Of a DNA stretch of 64,000 nt, positions 6,371 to 18,860 are shown one piece after another. The stretch is from Parcubacteria group bacterium GW2011_GWA2_40_23 (lineage in GTDB: Bacteria > Patescibacteriota > Patescibacteriia > UBA11705 > JABHMO01). The notes beneath the pieces are model-generated. The model had not been told where the DNA came from, did no database searches, and saw only the letters and a list, made by a program, of their open reading frames with translations. The translations under genes were made by a program, and so were the position numbers. Position 1 is the first letter of the stretch. Every line of letters starts with the position of its first letter. Location of the stretch: positions 10,860 through 74,859 of the forward strand of contig LBYP01000004.1 in NCBI GenBank assembly GCA_000996245.1. Reading direction: 5' to 3'.

Positions 6371-7039
6371 ATGATTTACGACTTTCAGGCAACAATTAGA
6401 AAAGAATTAAAAAAGAATGTTCAAGCCTTACGCGATCAGGGAATTGTCCCTGGTGTTGTCTATGGCCCAGAGTTAAAAGAGAACATTAATGTGGCTTTAG
6501 ACTTAGTTAAACTTGAAAAAATATTTAATGAAGCCGGAGAAAACTCACTAATCAATCTTCAGTTAGAAGGTGAAAAAGAAACACGCGAAGTTTTGATTAA
6601 AGACATTAATTTTGAACCAGTTACACACCGAATTGCGCACGTTGATTTTTATCAGATTAAGAAGGGCGAAAAATTGGAAATTGAACCAGAGTTGTCCTTT
6701 GTAGGTATAGCGCCAGCCGTAAAAGAACTTGGCGGTATCTTGATCAAGAGTTTAGCTAAGATTGAAATTCGTTGTTTACCAAAAGATATGATTTCACATA
6801 TCGAAGTGGACTTAACAACTTTAAAGAATTTTGGAGATAAGATTTTAGTTCGTGACTTAAAAGTTCCAGCAGATGTTGAGGTATTAACTGATTTAGAAGA
6901 AACGGTCGTTGTTATCGCGGCGCCAAGAGAAGAAGAAGTAGCTGCTCCAGTAGCTGAAGTAAAAGAACCTGAGGTTGTTGGTAAGAAAGAAGCTCCAGCC
7001 GATGCTCCAGCCGAAGGCGACAAAGCTGCCAAAAAATAA
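6371..7039 (+). CDS. rplY: 50S ribosomal protein L25 / general stress protein Ctc
   Basis: 222 aa. N-terminus MIYDFQATIRKELKKNVQALRDQGIVPGVVYG is typical of L25/Ctc. Has a C-terminal Ala/Pro/Glu/Lys-rich low-complexity tail. Confidence 0.85.
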   Translation: MIYDFQATIRKELKKNVQALRDQGIVPGVVYGPELKENINVALDLVKLEKIFNEAGENSLINLQLEGEKETREVLIKDINFEPVTHRIAHVDFYQIKKGEKLEIEPELSFVGIAPAVKELGGILIKSLAKIEIRCLPKDMISHIEVDLTTLKNFGDKILVRDLKVPADVEVLTDLEETVVVIAAPREEEVAAPVAEVKEPEVVGKKEAPADAPAEGDKAAKK

Positions 7040-7100
7040 TAATTTGCTTTCCCTTAAAAAGTGCCCTATATTGATAAAGTATTAAGGGCACTTTTCTTTT

Positions 7101-8141
7101 ATGCTGAAAATTAAAAAACAAAGAATTAACTTTATCGTTTTAATAATTGTTCTTGCGTTTTTATTAATGGGGACGATTGTTATTGTTATTAGAAATGAAC
7201 GAACTTTAAACATCCCTGTTAAAAATTCTGACACGGTTGAGCTAGAAATACCGAAAGTTTGCGAGAAAATTAGAAAAATTGATGGGCGTTGCATCACTCA
7301 AGATGAGGTTGGTGTTGTTGGTGTGATGATAGATAATCATGTCGGCGCGCGACCACCAGCTGGTTTAAGCCAGGCGAGCTTGGTTTATGAAACAATCGTT
7401 GAAAGCCCCATTACGCGTTTCCTGGCTATTTTTTCTTTGGATGAAAATGTGGAAAAAATTGGGCCAGTGCGTTCAGCACGACCTTTTTATGTTGATTGGG
7501 TTAAAGAGTTTAATGGTGTTTATGCACATGTAGGCGGAAGTAATGCGGCCATAGAGAATTTGAATGCTACTTATGATTTTAATTTCGACGAATTTTACAA
7601 TGGTGCATATTTTTATCGTGATAATTATCGCAGCACTCCACACAATGTTTTTACTTCAAGCGAGTTAATTAAGAAGGCGATTGAGGATAAAAAGTGGGAT
7701 GTGAAAAGTTCTTTTGAAAGCTGGAAGTTCCATCCAGATTCATTGGTAGACGGGAATGTTCTTGGAATTGAAGTGGATTTTAAAACGTACGACTTTTTAG
7801 TCCGATGGGAATATGATGTTACTCAGAAAAACTATGTTCGGTATGAGGGACATGAAATTCATTCTGAAAAAGATGGTACAGAAATTCGTGCCTCAAATGT
7901 AGTAATTATGTATACAGAAAGCTCTATCATCGATAATTATGGTCGTCGGGATACTCGCACTCTGGGTTCAGGCCAAGCACTAGTTTTTCAAAACGGACAG
8001 GTTATTGAAGGTTTGTGGAAGAGAGAGAAGCTAATAGATCGTACAAAATTTTATAATCAAGCAGGCGAGGAAATTTCCTTTTATGTCGGCACGACATGGA
8101 TTGAGGTTGTTACTGCGGAAACAGCTAAGGTAAAATATTAA
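7101..8141 (+). CDS. membrane-anchored protein resembling the DUF3048 (YerB-like) family
   Basis: 346 aa with an N-terminal TM helix. The block VMIDNHVGARPPAGLSQASLVYETIVESPITRFLAIFS resembles the DUF3048 conserved core; the family assignment is from memory. Confidence 0.45.
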   Translation: MLKIKKQRINFIVLIIVLAFLLMGTIVIVIRNERTLNIPVKNSDTVELEIPKVCEKIRKIDGRCITQDEVGVVGVMIDNHVGARPPAGLSQASLVYETIVESPITRFLAIFSLDENVEKIGPVRSARPFYVDWVKEFNGVYAHVGGSNAAIENLNATYDFNFDEFYNGAYFYRDNYRSTPHNVFTSSELIKKAIEDKKWDVKSSFESWKFHPDSLVDGNVLGIEVDFKTYDFLVRWEYDVTQKNYVRYEGHEIHSEKDGTEIRASNVVIMYTESSIIDNYGRRDTRTLGSGQALVFQNGQVIEGLWKREKLIDRTKFYNQAGEEISFYVGTTWIEVVTAETAKVKY

Positions 8142-14696: not shown

Positions 14697-14724
14697 TTGA
14701 CAAAACATAGCAAATCATTATAAT
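14697..14724 (+). promoter_or_regulatory. consensus sigma70 promoter TTGACA-16-TATAAT
   Basis: TTGACA at 14697-14702 and TATAAT at 14719-14724; it drives the GC-rich ORF downstream. Confidence 0.6.
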
Positions 14725-14781
14725 AAATTTTGCTTCTGAGTGAAGCATGGTTCTGGCTCCAAACCTTTGTGGAGGGTTCCA

Positions 14782-15264
14782 ATGACTCAAAAAATGACCT
14801 GCGATCAAATCGCGAACGCGATTCGTGATGGCTTGCCCGAGGGCTATGCCAAAGCGGCGCGTTTCCAAGTCCGCAAGGTTCATTCGGGGTTCTTGGTGAT
14901 CGTACCGACGCATCAGGTCGGTGGTAAGCGCGTGCTCAAAACGCACTTCGATAACAGCGATTCCCAGACCCTCGTCGCTCATATCATCGCGCACTTCAAG
15001 TCGTCCGTTCCCGAAGATACCGTTGCCTCCCTGCCCAGAGAGTTCCTTTGTGCCAAGGTGAGCACAGCGATTCGTCAGGCCTTGAAGGGCCTCGATGGAA
15101 TCCGTTTCAACGTGCGTCCGGTTCGTGATGGCCTGTGCGTGATCATCCCGTTCCACCGGACCAAGGGTGTCGAGATTCCCAGAGCGCACATCGGTCCGAA
15201 CTTGGACGAGTCCTACCTCGTGACTCGCGCTGTCGAGCACTTCCAGCAGCACCTCGCCGCCTAG
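14782..15264 (+). CDS. GC-rich hypothetical protein with an internal tandem duplication
   Basis: About 160 aa (ORF track starts at 14740; ATG 14782 gives MTQKMTCDQ…). Two similar ~70-aa halves (CDQIANAIRDGLPEGYAKAARFQVRKVHSGFLVIVPTH and CAKVSTAIRQALKGLDGIRFNVRPVRDGLCVIIPFH). GC-rich codons unlike neighbouring genes. The opposite-strand ORF 14671..15348 is judged spurious. Confidence 0.45.
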   Translation: MTQKMTCDQIANAIRDGLPEGYAKAARFQVRKVHSGFLVIVPTHQVGGKRVLKTHFDNSDSQTLVAHIIAHFKSSVPEDTVASLPREFLCAKVSTAIRQALKGLDGIRFNVRPVRDGLCVIIPFHRTKGVEIPRAHIGPNLDESYLVTRAVEHFQQHLAA

Positions 15265-15326
15265 CAGCTTCCGTTCGCCCGGCCAATCAGATTGGTCGGG
15301 CGTAATTTTTTTGCTATAATTAGCAC

Positions 15327-16142: not shown

Positions 16143-16376
16143 GGCACTCGAAGGAGACAAAGCAATTGTTTGATTGATTGTTAATGTTTTCTCTCAACCC
16201 AATGACTTACTTGACAAAAAGCATTTTTTTTGATATACTATTTTGTTAAACTAAGGGGAAAGATCATTGATTGTTAATTTTGGCTTAATTTAGTAATTAT
16301 TGACTTTTTCCCTTGGTTGGGAAAGGGGCTCCTGCTTGTACCGGGGGCGTGCTGGATCTTTTTTTAGGAGGAAGCG

Positions 16377-17150
16377 ATGAGTAATCGCGACGAGGACACT
16401 GTCGAGGTCGTGGAACAAGAGAAAATGACCGCGTTCGAGAGGGTGGTCTGGCTCTGGGCCAAGATCATCGGGTACATCCTGACCGGCAAGCGCAAGGCCG
16501 AAGAAGTGGCTGAGTGGCTGCAGATCGTGGTGTCGGAACCTCAGTTCTCCCTGCGTCTCAAGGCCCCACGCGACTCCACCATGGACACCGAAGAGCCTCG
16601 CGAAGGCTGGGCCAAGATCTGGGAGCGATTCTACCTCGAGGTCTTTGGGCTGACGGTAGACCTCTCGGGCGTGGCTGTGTCGTCGTACAAACCCGGTCTT
16701 GGCTGGGTGGTGTATGTGCTGAAAGAGCTTTCTCTTAACCAGCTCTTCGCCAAGTCCCGTGACCTGTTCCCGAGTCGCTCGGATTACGGCGACGACCTGG
16801 ATCGCAAGATTCCGACCGAAGATCGCGACCCGCGTCAACTGGGCAACTACGTGCGTCGGTTCCGGAATCGCGTAGAGGCGGATGAAGAACTCAAAGAAAA
16901 GTCCGCCAACGTTCTGCGCGATGAAGGTATCGCAGGCAACACTCTCCGTGAAGCCTTGATCCTAGAGCTCTTCTACTTCTGGCGCACAGGTGGCGGGCAT
17001 CTGAACTTGCGTTACTGGAATCTCTGTGCGGGCTCGCGCGGTTACCTTGGCTACGTTCCGCGCGTCTTATGGAGCATTGGTTGCTTCCGCGTCAGCGACT
17101 ACGATCCGAGCGGTTCCGGCGAGGATGTGCGCGCGCGCTCCGCAGTTTAA
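16377..17150 (+). CDS. DGR target (variable) protein; GC-rich, C-terminal CLec-like variable region
   Basis: 257 aa. AGGAGG sits 7 nt upstream of the ATG. C-terminal …RYWNLCAGSRGYLGYVPRVLWSIGCFRVSDYDPSGSGEDVRARSAV corresponds codon-for-codon to the Asn-codon-rich TR. No obvious signal peptide. Confidence 0.7.
   Translation: MSNRDEDTVEVVEQEKMTAFERVVWLWAKIIGYILTGKRKAEEVAEWLQIVVSEPQFSLRLKAPRDSTMDTEEPREGWAKIWERFYLEVFGLTVDLSGVAVSSYKPGLGWVVYVLKELSLNQLFAKSRDLFPSRSDYGDDLDRKIPTEDRDPRQLGNYVRRFRNRVEADEELKEKSANVLRDEGIAGNTLREALILELFYFWRTGGGHLNLRYWNLCAGSRGYLGYVPRVLWSIGCFRVSDYDPSGSGEDVRARSAV
17025..17147 (+). repeat. DGR variable region (VR)
   Basis: 3' end of the target gene. Differs from the TR almost only where the TR has A (e.g. 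AGC/GAC/GGT/GGC versus AAC/AAT). The 3'-terminal block gtgcgcgcgcgctccgcagtt is a putative IMH. Confidence 0.75.
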
Positions 17151-17157
17151 CCCTTTT

Positions 17158-17192
17158 CCCTTGTCCCTTTAACCCTTGCGTTAGGGACAGGG
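17158..17192 (+). promoter_or_regulatory. GC-rich hairpin immediately downstream of the VR (candidate DGR homing-enhancing stem-loop)
   Basis: cccttgtccct … agggacaggg is an inverted repeat 8-40 nt after the target-gene stop. A second hairpin, ccagcgttcgctgg, lies at about 17234-17249. Confidence 0.45.
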
Positions 17193-17304
17193 TAAACAAC
17201 CAACATCTGGCACTTCGTACATACGGGGTGCCAGTGCCAGCGTTCGCTGGACAACACAGGGCGTCTTGAAAAAGATCCGCGGTGATTATGGATGGAAATG
17301 ACCA

Positions 17305-17427
17305 ATATGCGGGCTCGCGCGATAACAATGGCAACGTTCCGAACGTCAAATGGAACAATGGTAACTTCCACGTCAACAACTACAATCCGAACAATTCCAA
17401 CGAAAATGTGCGCGCTCGCTCCGAAGT
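17305..17427 (+). repeat. DGR template region (TR)
   Basis: tatgcgggctcgcgcgataacaatggcaacgttccgaacgtcaaatggaacaatggtaacttccacgtcaacaactacaatccgaacaattccaacgaaaatgtgcgcgctcgctccgaagtt. Adenine-rich with many AAC/AAT codons. Lies in a non-coding GC-rich spacer. Confidence 0.75.
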
Positions 17428-17444
17428 TTCAAGTCAAAAGGGGT

Positions 17445-17828
17445 TTATTGATTAAGCTCCTTTTGTTGTAAATATTCAATCCAACCAGAAGTCATTTTTG
17501 AGATTTCTTGTAATTTCTCTTGAAAAACGCCATAGTTTTTTTCTTTGAGTGTTGATAGTTCTAATTCAAGTCTAATGAATTGTTTAAGAGTTTCAATTTC
17601 AATCTTTAACTCTTTAACTACAGGGAGCTTTTCGAGTTTTTGCATTAACGCTGCTTTAATTGCCAGGCGTAGACAAGCTAGAATTACGGATTCTGTTTTT
17701 GATCTTATTCCGTATTTATCGACTTTTGGCAGACCCTTGGTGTTTTGATAGAGCATTTTAAATAAGTCGGAAATTTTATGAACAATCGAAGCGTGAATGA
17801 CATCGGAGGCAATGAATTTGTTGGTCAT
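17445..17828 (-). CDS. avd: Avd-like accessory variability determinant (four-helix-bundle protein)
   Basis: 127 aa. LYQNTKGLPKVDKYGIRSKTESVILACLRLAIKAAL fits the Avd / 23S-rRNA-IVS four-helix-bundle pattern (fPK..KYGL.SQ…). Located between TR and RT but on the opposite strand; its 5' end overlaps the RT ORF by 51 nt. Confidence 0.55.
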   Translation of the reverse strand: MTNKFIASDVIHASIVHKISDLFKMLYQNTKGLPKVDKYGIRSKTESVILACLRLAIKAALMQKLEKLPVVKELKIEIETLKQFIRLELELSTLKEKNYGVFQEKLQEISKMTSGWIEYLQQKELNQ

Positions 17829-18860
17829 AGTGTTTTTGATAAAATTATTTCTATTGAAAATTTATATGGCGCTTGGCGAGAATTTAAACGAGGCAAGACC
17901 AGCAAAAAAGATGTTCTTTGTTTTGAATTTAACTTGGAGGATAATTTGTTCAATTTAGCTGAAGAATTGAAATTAGGCAATTATTTAGTTGAAAAGTATG
18001 ATTTTTTCTATGTGCGTGATCCTAAATTACGGCCGATTCACAAAGCTTCAGTGCGAGATAGAGTCGTTTTTCAAGCTGTCTTTCGGGTACTTTACCCTGT
18101 TTTTGATAAGCAGTTTATTCACGACTCCTGTTCATGTCGTTATAAGAAGGGAATACATTTTGCCGTCGCTCGATTGCGTCGATTTTGTGCCAAAGTAAGT
18201 AATAATTACCATCAGCAAGCATTTGCTTTAAAATGCGATGTCAAAAAGTTTTTCTATTCCATTGATCATGTTATTTTGAAAAAACTCATTAAAAGAAACA
18301 TCGAGGACACGCGTCTGTTGCACCTGATAGATATTATCGTTGATAGTTTTTCTGTAGCTCCAGAAAAGGGTTTGCCGCTGGGAAATGTTACTAGCCAGTT
18401 ATTCGCCAACATCTATTTGAACGAGTTGGATATATTTATCAAACATGAATTACATGAAAAATTTTATCTTCGTTATTGCGATGATTTTATTATTTTGAGC
18501 GAAAGTCAAAGTCATTTATTTGATTTGATACCAATTATAAGTGAGTTTCTCTCATCAGAGTTAAAATTAAAGCTGCATCCGGGTAAAGTTCAACTTAAAA
18601 AAATGACTCAAGGGATTGATTTTTTAGGATATGTAACATTGCCATATTATGGTGTTCTTCGAACGAAAACAAAACAAAGGATGTTTAGGAAGGTTATTGC
18701 AGCCTCGGAAAAGCTGGATGCTGATTTGATTGATAAGATTGGTTTTAACCAAGTGCTGCAATCATATTTGGGAATACTGCAACATTGCCAGAGCTTTTGG
18801 TTACAGCAGGAGCTATTGTTTCTTTGCGGAGAATGCCTTGCTGAAACACAAAAATCGTGA
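17778..18860 (+). CDS. DGR-type reverse transcriptase
   Basis: 360 aa. RT domains are present. LPLGNVTSQLFANIYLNELD carries the DGR-specific (I/L)GxxxSQ motif. The YxDD box reads RYCDDFIILS. No in-frame alternative start lies before the conserved RT region. Confidence 0.85.
   Translation: MNNRSVNDIGGNEFVGHSVFDKIISIENLYGAWREFKRGKTSKKDVLCFEFNLEDNLFNLAEELKLGNYLVEKYDFFYVRDPKLRPIHKASVRDRVVFQAVFRVLYPVFDKQFIHDSCSCRYKKGIHFAVARLRRFCAKVSNNYHQQAFALKCDVKKFFYSIDHVILKKLIKRNIEDTRLLHLIDIIVDSFSVAPEKGLPLGNVTSQLFANIYLNELDIFIKHELHEKFYLRYCDDFIILSESQSHLFDLIPIISEFLSSELKLKLHPGKVQLKKMTQGIDFLGYVTLPYYGVLRTKTKQRMFRKVIAASEKLDADLIDKIGFNQVLQSYLGILQHCQSFWLQQELLFLCGECLAETQKS

Follow-up and report, generated by a model that had tools for sequence, protein, structure and literature searches.

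A diversity-generating retroelement on a Parcubacteria chromosome, with a candidate priming module upstream of its template repeat

Here we describe a diversity-generating retroelement (DGR) in a 64,000-nt stretch of DNA from Parcubacteria group bacterium GW2011_GWA2_40_23 (assembly GCA_000996245.1, contig LBYP01000004.1, positions 10,860 to 74,859 of the forward strand), called the window below, whose numbering is used throughout. The locus is a genuine DGR, of a kind already known as common in the Candidate Phyla Radiation (CPR). The DGR interpretation given in a first-pass annotation of the window is borne out, all of the defining gene and repeat components being present; as a DGR it was called correctly and is ordinary for its host group, not novel as a kind, and as a locus it adds little. 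We hold with high confidence that the observations are best explained jointly by a chromosomal CPR element of the B3 layout, whose predicted priming module lies upstream of the template repeat (TR) and whose copy in the window probably contains an assembly gap. More tentatively, and at a strength that falls a little short of an even chance, we propose that the B3 DGRs of the CPR use a circularly permuted DGR RNA. Upstream of TR, such an RNA would contain the primer strand and its linker, one strand of the stop duplex and a GNRA-capped stem, the whole being a separate transcript of ca. 310 to 320 nt, and the primer strand would covary more with the flank of the variable repeat (VR) than with that of TR.

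The repeat pair and the gene that carries its variable copy are laid out as follows.

16377 to 17150, plus strand: target (variable protein) gene, 257 aa (open reading frame [ORF]; 59% GC, GC content at third codon positions [GC3] 0.72)
17025 to 17148, plus strand: VR, the last 41 codons of the target gene (offset alignment, repeat search)
17127 to 17150, plus strand: GC-rich block and VR 3′ junction (GTGCGCGCGCGCTCCGCAGTTTAA), an end resembling the initiation of mutagenic homing (IMH) site (VR/TR alignment)
17158 to 17192, no strand assigned: inverted repeat (hairpin) directly after VR (DNA fold, z = -3.5 for 17148-17240)
17306 to 17429, plus strand: TR, with 38 adenines in its 122-nt core (offset alignment, repeat search)

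VR at 17025 to 17148 and TR at 17306 to 17429 (offset 281) differ at 27 positions, 26 of which are TR adenines, and the count of the first-pass annotation was thereby reproduced. Its TR start of 17305 was off by one, however: at that register (offset 280, VR 17025 against TR 17305) 98 of 123 positions mismatch, which is noise, and the true start is 17306. A scan of offsets gave 281 as a single sharp optimum (106 of 161 positions matching, against 30 to 42 at neighbouring offsets), and a separate repeat search recovered the same pair. Within the 122-nt core (VR 17027-17148, TR 17308-17429) there are 26 mismatches, 25 of them at TR adenines. Tabulated by base, as had been suggested, the computed alignment is adenine-specific, the hypergeometric probability of at least 25 of 26 mismatches falling on the 38 TR adenines being 2e-15. 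TR is made up of successive AAC/AAT codons, and 25 of its 38 core adenines are changed in VR (A to G 15, A to T 7, A to C 3); 24 of the 26 core mismatches affect the first or second base of a codon in the target ORF. The only mismatch of the core that does not involve an adenine, T to G at TR 17416 / VR 17135, was found where the annotation had put it, within the 3′ GC block (17127-17141 proper). The 3′-most mismatch is TR A17424 / VR C17143, and the two flanks part ways after 17148/17429. An IMH/IMH*-type feature is thus present, comprising the GC element, the one non-adenine difference (17135/17416) and the hairpin after VR, which had also been described before and does fold.

The second part of the element consists of two genes, one of which is read against the other.

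17445 to 17828, minus strand: avd accessory gene, 127 aa (Pfam bAvd; opposite strand to target, TR and reverse transcriptase [RT])
17778 to 18860, plus strand: DGR RT, 360 aa (Pfam RVT_1; best PDB relative bRT 8ub7)
18378 to 18398, plus strand: LGNVTSQ motif, RT residues 201 to 207 (the [I/L]GxxxSQ motif of DGRs)
18474 to 18485, plus strand: YCDD box of the RT (string position)

Judged by its sequence, the RT is of the DGR type. Its best solved relative is bRT of the Bordetella phage (8ub7; E 5e-37, 131 bits), whereas group II intron and other RTs reach ca. 60 bits (E about 1e-16 to 5e-16); its phage relatives in tblastn include known DGR RTs, for example BPP-1 brt (33% identity); and both sequence motifs named in the annotation are in place. 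The NCBIfam results might be taken to support a different account, in which the locus is not a DGR at all and the decayed duplication of a gene's 3′ end lies beside an unrelated retron or group II intron RT: a group II intron maturase model ranked first, at 134.6 bits, and no DGR-RT model was among the NCBIfam matches of the RT. That score is, however, far below the model's cutoff of 300 bits, and bRT leads the other solved relatives by 70 bits. Nor would such a duplication account for 25 of 26 mismatches on TR adenines, concentrated at codon positions 1 and 2, for the presence of Avd, or for the recurrence of the cassette with adenine-biased mismatches in 32 loci. We regard this account as so improbable as to be negligible, and we treat the locus as a DGR in what follows. 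As for Avd, the annotation had placed an Avd-like ORF of 127 aa between TR and RT; the family holds (Pfam bAvd, E 3e-13, 50.6 bits, cutoff 40; NCBIfam DivGenRetAVD, E 1.5e-16, 60.6 bits, under its cutoff of 80), but the strand had been overlooked, the ORF being on the minus strand.

The avd 5′ end and the first 17 RT codons overlap head to head by up to 51 nt (17778-17828), so that the promoter of each gene must lie within the coding sequence of the other. This tight abutment is kept in most related loci. As an avd promoter we considered a weak minus-strand site inside avd, which fits neither avd start codon and was rejected.

With target(+), TR(+), avd(-) and RT(+), the element has the architecture published as B3, TR-(avd)-RT, to which 90% of CPR DGRs belong (Wu et al. 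2018, PMC5758913). It is situated between lgt and rpsB-tsf on groundwater CPR contigs (NCBI GCA_000993485.1 and several re-assemblies) of a Parcubacteria/Magasanikbacteria-like host genome, a position which argues that it is chromosomal and not part of a prophage. A scan of a genome collection with the target family yielded 80 loci across Patescibacteria; it made use of a 27-sequence alignment of that family, an 88-sequence alignment being too diverse for the search pattern. The same gene order was found in 36 of these, and 32 of the VR/TR pairs examined have adenine-biased mismatches. No RT is present within 6 kb of about half of the target homologues, which represent remote or orphan targets. 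Several genomes contain at least two target paralogues, which may be arranged in tandem, follow the RT, or lie tens of kilobases away with no RT (L011/L043, L036/L037, L042, L019 and L056). In other cases (L008, L009, L016, L023, L052 and others) a CPR-type cassette is filed under "uncultured Gammaproteobacteria" or Syntrophobacterales metagenome-assembled genomes, which are probably mis-binned or mislabelled.

The annotation had also described TR as a non-coding segment downstream of VR. In this regard the repeat pair is real, but the spacer between the repeats is 111 nt shorter in the window than in every other assembly of the locus.

17207 to 17234, plus strand: second hairpin, CTGGCAC...GTGCCAG (fold; a terminator was called at 6830-6859 of the ENA contig L001, together with a T-run)
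17234 to 17235, no strand assigned: junction at which 111 nt are absent relative to four other assemblies (assembly comparison)

On either side of this junction the ENA contig L001 matches the window at 100% identity, but between 17234 and 17235 it contains an additional 111 AT-rich nucleotides. The same 111 nt are present, identically, in four of four other assemblies of the locus (L001, L083, L084 and L085), and the junction of the window is present in none; they carry the terminator T-run, an extended -10 promoter (TGTTATAAT), the P1 hairpin of the leader described below, the primer-like motif GAAACUGCUU and the 5′ strand of helix Pa. In the other assemblies the hairpin at 17207-17234 is followed by ATTTTTTTAT and constitutes the intrinsic terminator of the target gene, whose T-run is missing from the window. 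Given that four other assemblies have the 111 nt, their absence probably reflects an assembly gap, i.e., a silent joining of contigs, which we judge about four times likelier than a real deletion. Were the deletion real, the window would hold a frozen variant, a DGR without TR promoter and primer strand that could not prime and whose VR is fixed at its last diversified state. The direct GGTGCCAG/TGCCAGCG junction without Ns speaks for such a variant, as does the fact that an independent NCBI assembly breaks at the same base, as it might at a population polymorphism (the last base of contig LBWI01000016.1 corresponds to 17234, and the NCBI assembly of the locus has VR and TR on different contigs); the identical VR consensus in all assemblies would also fit. 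On the other hand, both copies of the flanking hexamer TGCCAG are kept at the junction, which is in keeping with end-to-end contig joining and not with repeat-mediated deletion, since the latter leaves one copy. The VR-to-TR offset of 281 is outside the range of single-target relatives (354 to 497), in which the 392 of L001 is included. A search for a contig with the window's junction, made through the ORF that spans it, found none on record. A real deletion is unlikely in our estimation, and we read the window as having an assembly gap. The trap is a practical one, in that this silent gap of 111 nt takes away exactly the parts that are needed to judge whether the element can work.

Upstream of TR in 41 related cassettes, and in the other assemblies of the locus, there is a conserved leader of ca. 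190 nt. The parts of it that are left in the window, and the sequences at the other end of TR that bear on it, are the following.

17235 to 17305, plus strand: 3′ half of the TR-RNA leader (covariance model, covariation)
17237 to 17250, plus strand: P3 hairpin, in the leader 3′ half
17253 to 17259, plus strand: AACACAG, in the leader 3′ half
17260 to 17280, plus strand: P4 stem with GAAA tetraloop, in the leader 3′ half
17280 to 17285, plus strand: CGGUGA, in the leader 3′ half
17294 to 17305, plus strand: 3′ strand of helix Pa, in the leader 3′ half
17425 to 17432, plus strand: AGUUUCAA, the predicted template strand of a template:primer duplex with leader UUGAAACU (minimum free energy [MFE] fold, covariation test)
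17436 to 17464, no strand assigned: terminator-like hairpin (AAAAGGGG...CTCCTTTT plus T-run) straddling the avd stop codon (MFE fold)

In the relatives, the target gene is followed by a terminator hairpin with its T-run, a -10 box, 6 to 7 nt and then a conserved start, GGCUAAUACA. The -10 box reads TGTTATAAT in L001, and a match to TATAAT at 5 or more of its 6 positions was found at a fixed distance from the GGCU start in 32 of the 41 leaders. The leader then proceeds through hairpin P1, a near-invariant GAAACU, a 2-nt GC linker, an 11-nt Pa strand and variable hairpins to the GNRA-capped P4, a 7- to 8-bp stem with mostly GNAA loops. Its central part reads GAAACU, GC and UUGGUCAUUUC in succession; GAAACU is complementary to AGUUUC at the 3′ end of TR, and the 11-nt strand pairs with the sequence immediately upstream of TR (helix Pa). 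TR A17424 is directly 5′ of the predicted template:primer duplex.

Covariation was assessed on an alignment (A3) of the VR-TR spacers of 30 related loci. RNAalifold returned two helices, P1 and the long-range Pa (the strand after motif GAAACUGCUU with the sequence just upstream of TR), in which 16 of 20 pairs show compensatory double changes. In a 38-pair structure made up of P0, P1, Pa, P4 and the helix between the motif and the TR end, 88% of cells are paired, compared with 34 to 49% when the partners are slid by 1 to 3 columns; its covariation score is 0.46, against no more than 0.145 for the slid controls, and 0 of 500 shuffles reached it. The motif:TR-end helix (helix 3) is 80% paired in the 30 loci. 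An unconstrained MFE fold of the intact RNA of L001 contains UUGAAACU:AGUUUCAA, Pa, P3, P4 with its GAAA loop, and the terminator. A covariance model (R1) found full-length copies in 41 related loci (88 to 169 bits), of which 11 had not contributed to the seed, and scored 138 bits in other assemblies of the locus (L001 and L083). All matches are upstream of TR and on the TR strand, and orphan targets gave none. The window as given does not contain a complete priming module in cis, the only match (17232-17293, 28 bits) covering model positions 107 to 167 of 205; as four other assemblies and 41 related loci have the whole module, this failure is most likely one of the assembly and not of the element. 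The leader matched no family in Rfam 15, at gathering scores or at E <= 1. Downstream of TR, the relatives have at the place of the 17436-17464 hairpin a canonical GC stem with a T-run across the avd stop, and an A-run on the 5′ side. Taken at face value, these signals suggest that the TR RNA would be a self-contained transcript of ca. 310 to 320 nt with its own promoter and terminator, in L001 the 320 nt at 6893-7212.

GCAGTTT at the VR 3′ junction is complementary to the primer-like leader strand AAACUGC. Once reverse-complemented, the leader strand agrees better with the VR end than with the TR end in 20 loci, and the opposite holds in 4 (Wilcoxon p = 0.0013). At the six positions beyond the shared core, identity with the VR flank amounts to 85 of 174, compared with 56 +/- 5 after leaders had been permuted between loci (P < 2e-4); the TR flank gives 58, compared with 45 +/- 5 after permutation (P = 0.007). 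The match between primer strand and VR often runs past the point at which VR and TR diverge, over 12 contiguous nucleotides in L010 and 11 each in L015 and L029, and these last two, which are close relatives, differ by a compensatory change. We also scanned metagenomes with the RT and obtained 8 loci. One of them (L086, 1665-4505) is a DGR with an unrelated 331-aa target and an RT that is 57% identical, yet it has the same leader layout, as judged by eye and by base-pairing; R1, which is too lineage specific to score it well, gives it 27 bits. Its motif AGAGCACUGC is a 10-of-10 complement (one wobble) of its own VR end, GCGGTGCTCT, and its Pa strands pair at 11 of 11 positions. R1 had no match on the metagenome loci L089, L091, L092 and L093. 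In L089, whose RT is 46% identical, avd is inverted. Some 30 divergent natural elements and a second target family thus lend comparative support, at the level of sequence, to the idea that the primer selects the VR end (IMH).

The flank beyond VR has a further feature. A non-coding motif, TAACCCTTG, is conserved after the target stop codon in the VR flanks of L017, L030, L038, L039, L042 and L048, and the window has two copies of TAACCCTT at 17148-17178. The post-stop motif TAACCCTTG may be part of the homing site.

How such a leader might act is suggested by phage BPP-1, in which cDNA is primed from A56 of the spacer RNA (Sp) and Sp47-56 pairs with TR118-129 (Handa et al., bioRxiv 10.1101/2023.10.23.563531). 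There, after a 2-nt linker (Sp57-58), Sp59-70 pairs with the bases directly preceding TR to give the 11-bp "cPRT stop" duplex (bioRxiv 10.1101/2023.10.23.563531). The BPP-1 sequence reads TAGGTGGTCA, GC and CGGTTCTGTCCT in succession, and the reverse complement of Sp47-56 matches IMH at 9 of 9 positions and IMH* only partly. In the CPR elements, to judge from the 41 related cassettes and the other assemblies of the locus, TR would be made as an RNA of its own, of ca. 310 to 320 nt, from a -10 box 6 to 7 nt before the GGCU start through the ca. 190-nt leader and TR to the terminator hairpin. By analogy with BPP-1, RT-Avd would prime cDNA from the U of GAAACU, next to the GC linker; copying of TR would begin at A17424, misincorporate at adenines and halt at helix Pa; and the RNA primer, still linked to the cDNA, would pair with the VR 3′ junction. 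Since this junction matches the primer better than the TR end does, it is VR, and not TR, that would be replaced.

Alternatively, the leader may be a mere promoter and 5′ untranslated region (UTR), or an unrelated small RNA, with an Sp-like priming element downstream of TR and antisense to avd. Handa et al. 2024 report stem-loops directly after TR in 207 of the 278 DGRs that contain Avd, CPR elements among them, and a hairpin does follow TR here, at 17436-17464. In the relatives, however, that hairpin has the form of a canonical GC stem with T-run and 5′ A-run across the avd stop, whereas it is the leader that shows the module order, namely a primer-like strand, GC and an 11-nt strand whose pairing partner lies just upstream of TR. 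The leader strand, moreover, covaries with the VR flank locus by locus, and does so in the second target family (L086) as well. We consider a downstream element decidedly improbable and favor the upstream module, against which several points nevertheless have to be set. The GAAACU:AGUUUC helix shows double changes in only 2 of 8 pairs and an A-C mismatch with TR in 9 loci; being near-invariant, it contributes little covariation. In many DGRs, including those of CPR, putative stem-loops that bind Avd and putative stop duplexes have been placed downstream of TR (Handa et al. 2024), although that work looked no further than 40 nt before and 100 nt after TR in other DGRs, a range that leaves the CPR leader out of view. 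The start of transcription, the priming nucleotide, the cDNA and homing are all argued from analogy. Paul et al. 2017 may already describe parts of the leader model. Finally, the consensus VR is identical in four assemblies of the locus and gives no sign of current activity.

The target protein has an N-terminal helical region and a C-terminal domain with, as modelled, the C-type-lectin fold seen in TvpA, Mtd and TaqVP. An AlphaFold2 model built from the family alignment has a pLDDT of 91; a Foldseek search with it gave no match, and neither did sequence searches of the protein against Pfam, NCBIfam and PDB. There are 88 target homologues, and all of those with a source name come from Patescibacteria/CPR. 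The most variable columns of the family alignment coincide with the TR-adenine codons of VR. VR is at the 3′ end of a coding target with a variation-tolerant lectin fold, as expected of a DGR. In agreement with the annotation, which saw no obvious signal peptide, no signal-peptide-like or transmembrane-like segment was found in 19-residue windows (maximum Kyte-Doolittle mean 1.23); the annotation's idea that the target may act inside the cell is speculative. A promoter-like site precedes the gene.

16211 to 16239, plus strand: promoter-like site of the target gene, TTGACA-17-TATACT with TG, 11 of 12 matches (maps from L001 5835-5863)

The 5′ UTR of the target (16246-16376) contains a long hairpin (16249-16318) and then a GC hairpin with a T-run just before the ribosome-binding site (z = -2.6). 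These hairpins may be an attenuator; conservation of the fold in relatives is not obvious.

The element is also divided in its base composition. The target gene, its 5′ UTR, the VR-TR spacer and TR have ca. 58% GC, in a genome of ca. 37%, whereas avd and RT have 33 to 35%. The GC3 of the target is 0.72 (0.73 without VR), compared with 0.26 to 0.39 in neighbouring host genes and 0.30 and 0.32 in avd and RT. Over 77 loci target GC exceeds that of the flanks by a mean of 0.12, and in 33 of 33 cassettes the GC3 of the non-VR part of the target is higher than that of the RT (means 0.65 and 0.35). Depletion of adenines by the RT was rejected as the cause, because third-position A and T are both about halved in the target, so that the effect is not adenine specific. 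An amino acid effect was rejected on the GC3 values themselves, here and over the 33 cassettes. A one-off horizontal transfer is unlikely, as the contrast is family-wide and the adjacent avd and RT are AT rich. What lies behind it is a matter of guesswork: target paralogues may undergo biased gene conversion, or selection may act on the stability of duplex or mRNA.

A second GC-rich island is found at 14697-15307 (60% GC, GC3 0.71), with a plus-strand ORF at 14782-15264 that encodes 160 aa as two repeats of ca. 80 aa (the halves align at E 3e-12) and has its own consensus TTGACA/TATAAT promoter and terminator. We considered it as part of the DGR and rejected it: none of the related DGR loci has the gene, an ORFan for which databases gave 2 matches.

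The comparative result may be of more consequence than the locus. If the module is truly upstream of TR in this large class of DGR, searches confined to the downstream side will mis-assign the functional RNA in most CPR elements, and anyone wishing to reconstitute or engineer a compact CPR DGR will need the leader. The locus-by-locus match between primer and VR flank, for its part, is evidence from natural variation on how DGR cDNA targets VR and not TR.

Among known systems, the closest are the B3 DGRs of CPR and DPANN (Wu et al. 2018, PMC5758913), with which our element shares the gene order and the inverted avd, a CPR host and a groundwater metagenome source, a small target without Pfam domain, and adenine-specific mismatches; there is no difference at the level of genes. 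In the DGR literature that we compared, which does not include Paul et al. 2017, neither a structured leader upstream of TR nor the GC3 contrast between target and avd/RT is mentioned. The variable proteins TvpA (2y3c), Mtd (1yu0) and TaqVP (5vf4) have no detectable sequence similarity to the target, and its N-terminal helical region of ca. 95 residues is unmatched in them. The Rfam motifs RT-1 to RT-19, of which RT-10 is the TR-brt spacer RNA of BPP-1 (Weinberg et al. 2017, PMC5737381), are likewise structured RNAs beside RT genes and have been proposed as DGR or retron primers; none of them matches the leader.

The comparison with BPP-1 (mtd-VR / avd / TR / Sp / brt) is the most instructive. 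The RTs are homologous (33% identity), both elements have Avd, and in both a GC-rich block and a hairpin mark the VR end. They would also share the same RNA module, comprising a primer strand, a 2-nt GC linker and an 11-bp duplex just upstream of TR, and the primer strand of each is a better complement of the VR end (IMH) than of the TR end (IMH*). The two differ in host, a phage in the one case and a CPR chromosome in the other, and in avd, which the CPR element carries in reverse orientation, with a head-to-head overlap at the RT start. The first base to be copied is predicted to be an adenine here (TR 17424); in BPP-1 it is a G. Above all, the BPP-1 module is 3′ of TR, between TR and the RT gene, whereas that of the CPR elements would be 5′ of TR, in an RNA that is separately promoted and terminated. 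Naorem et al. 2017 (PMC5703328) had already proposed that homing takes its direction from base-pairing between IMH and an RNA primer attached to the cDNA. The concept of primer-IMH pairing is therefore known, and our contribution to it is the comparative support and the permuted position of the module.

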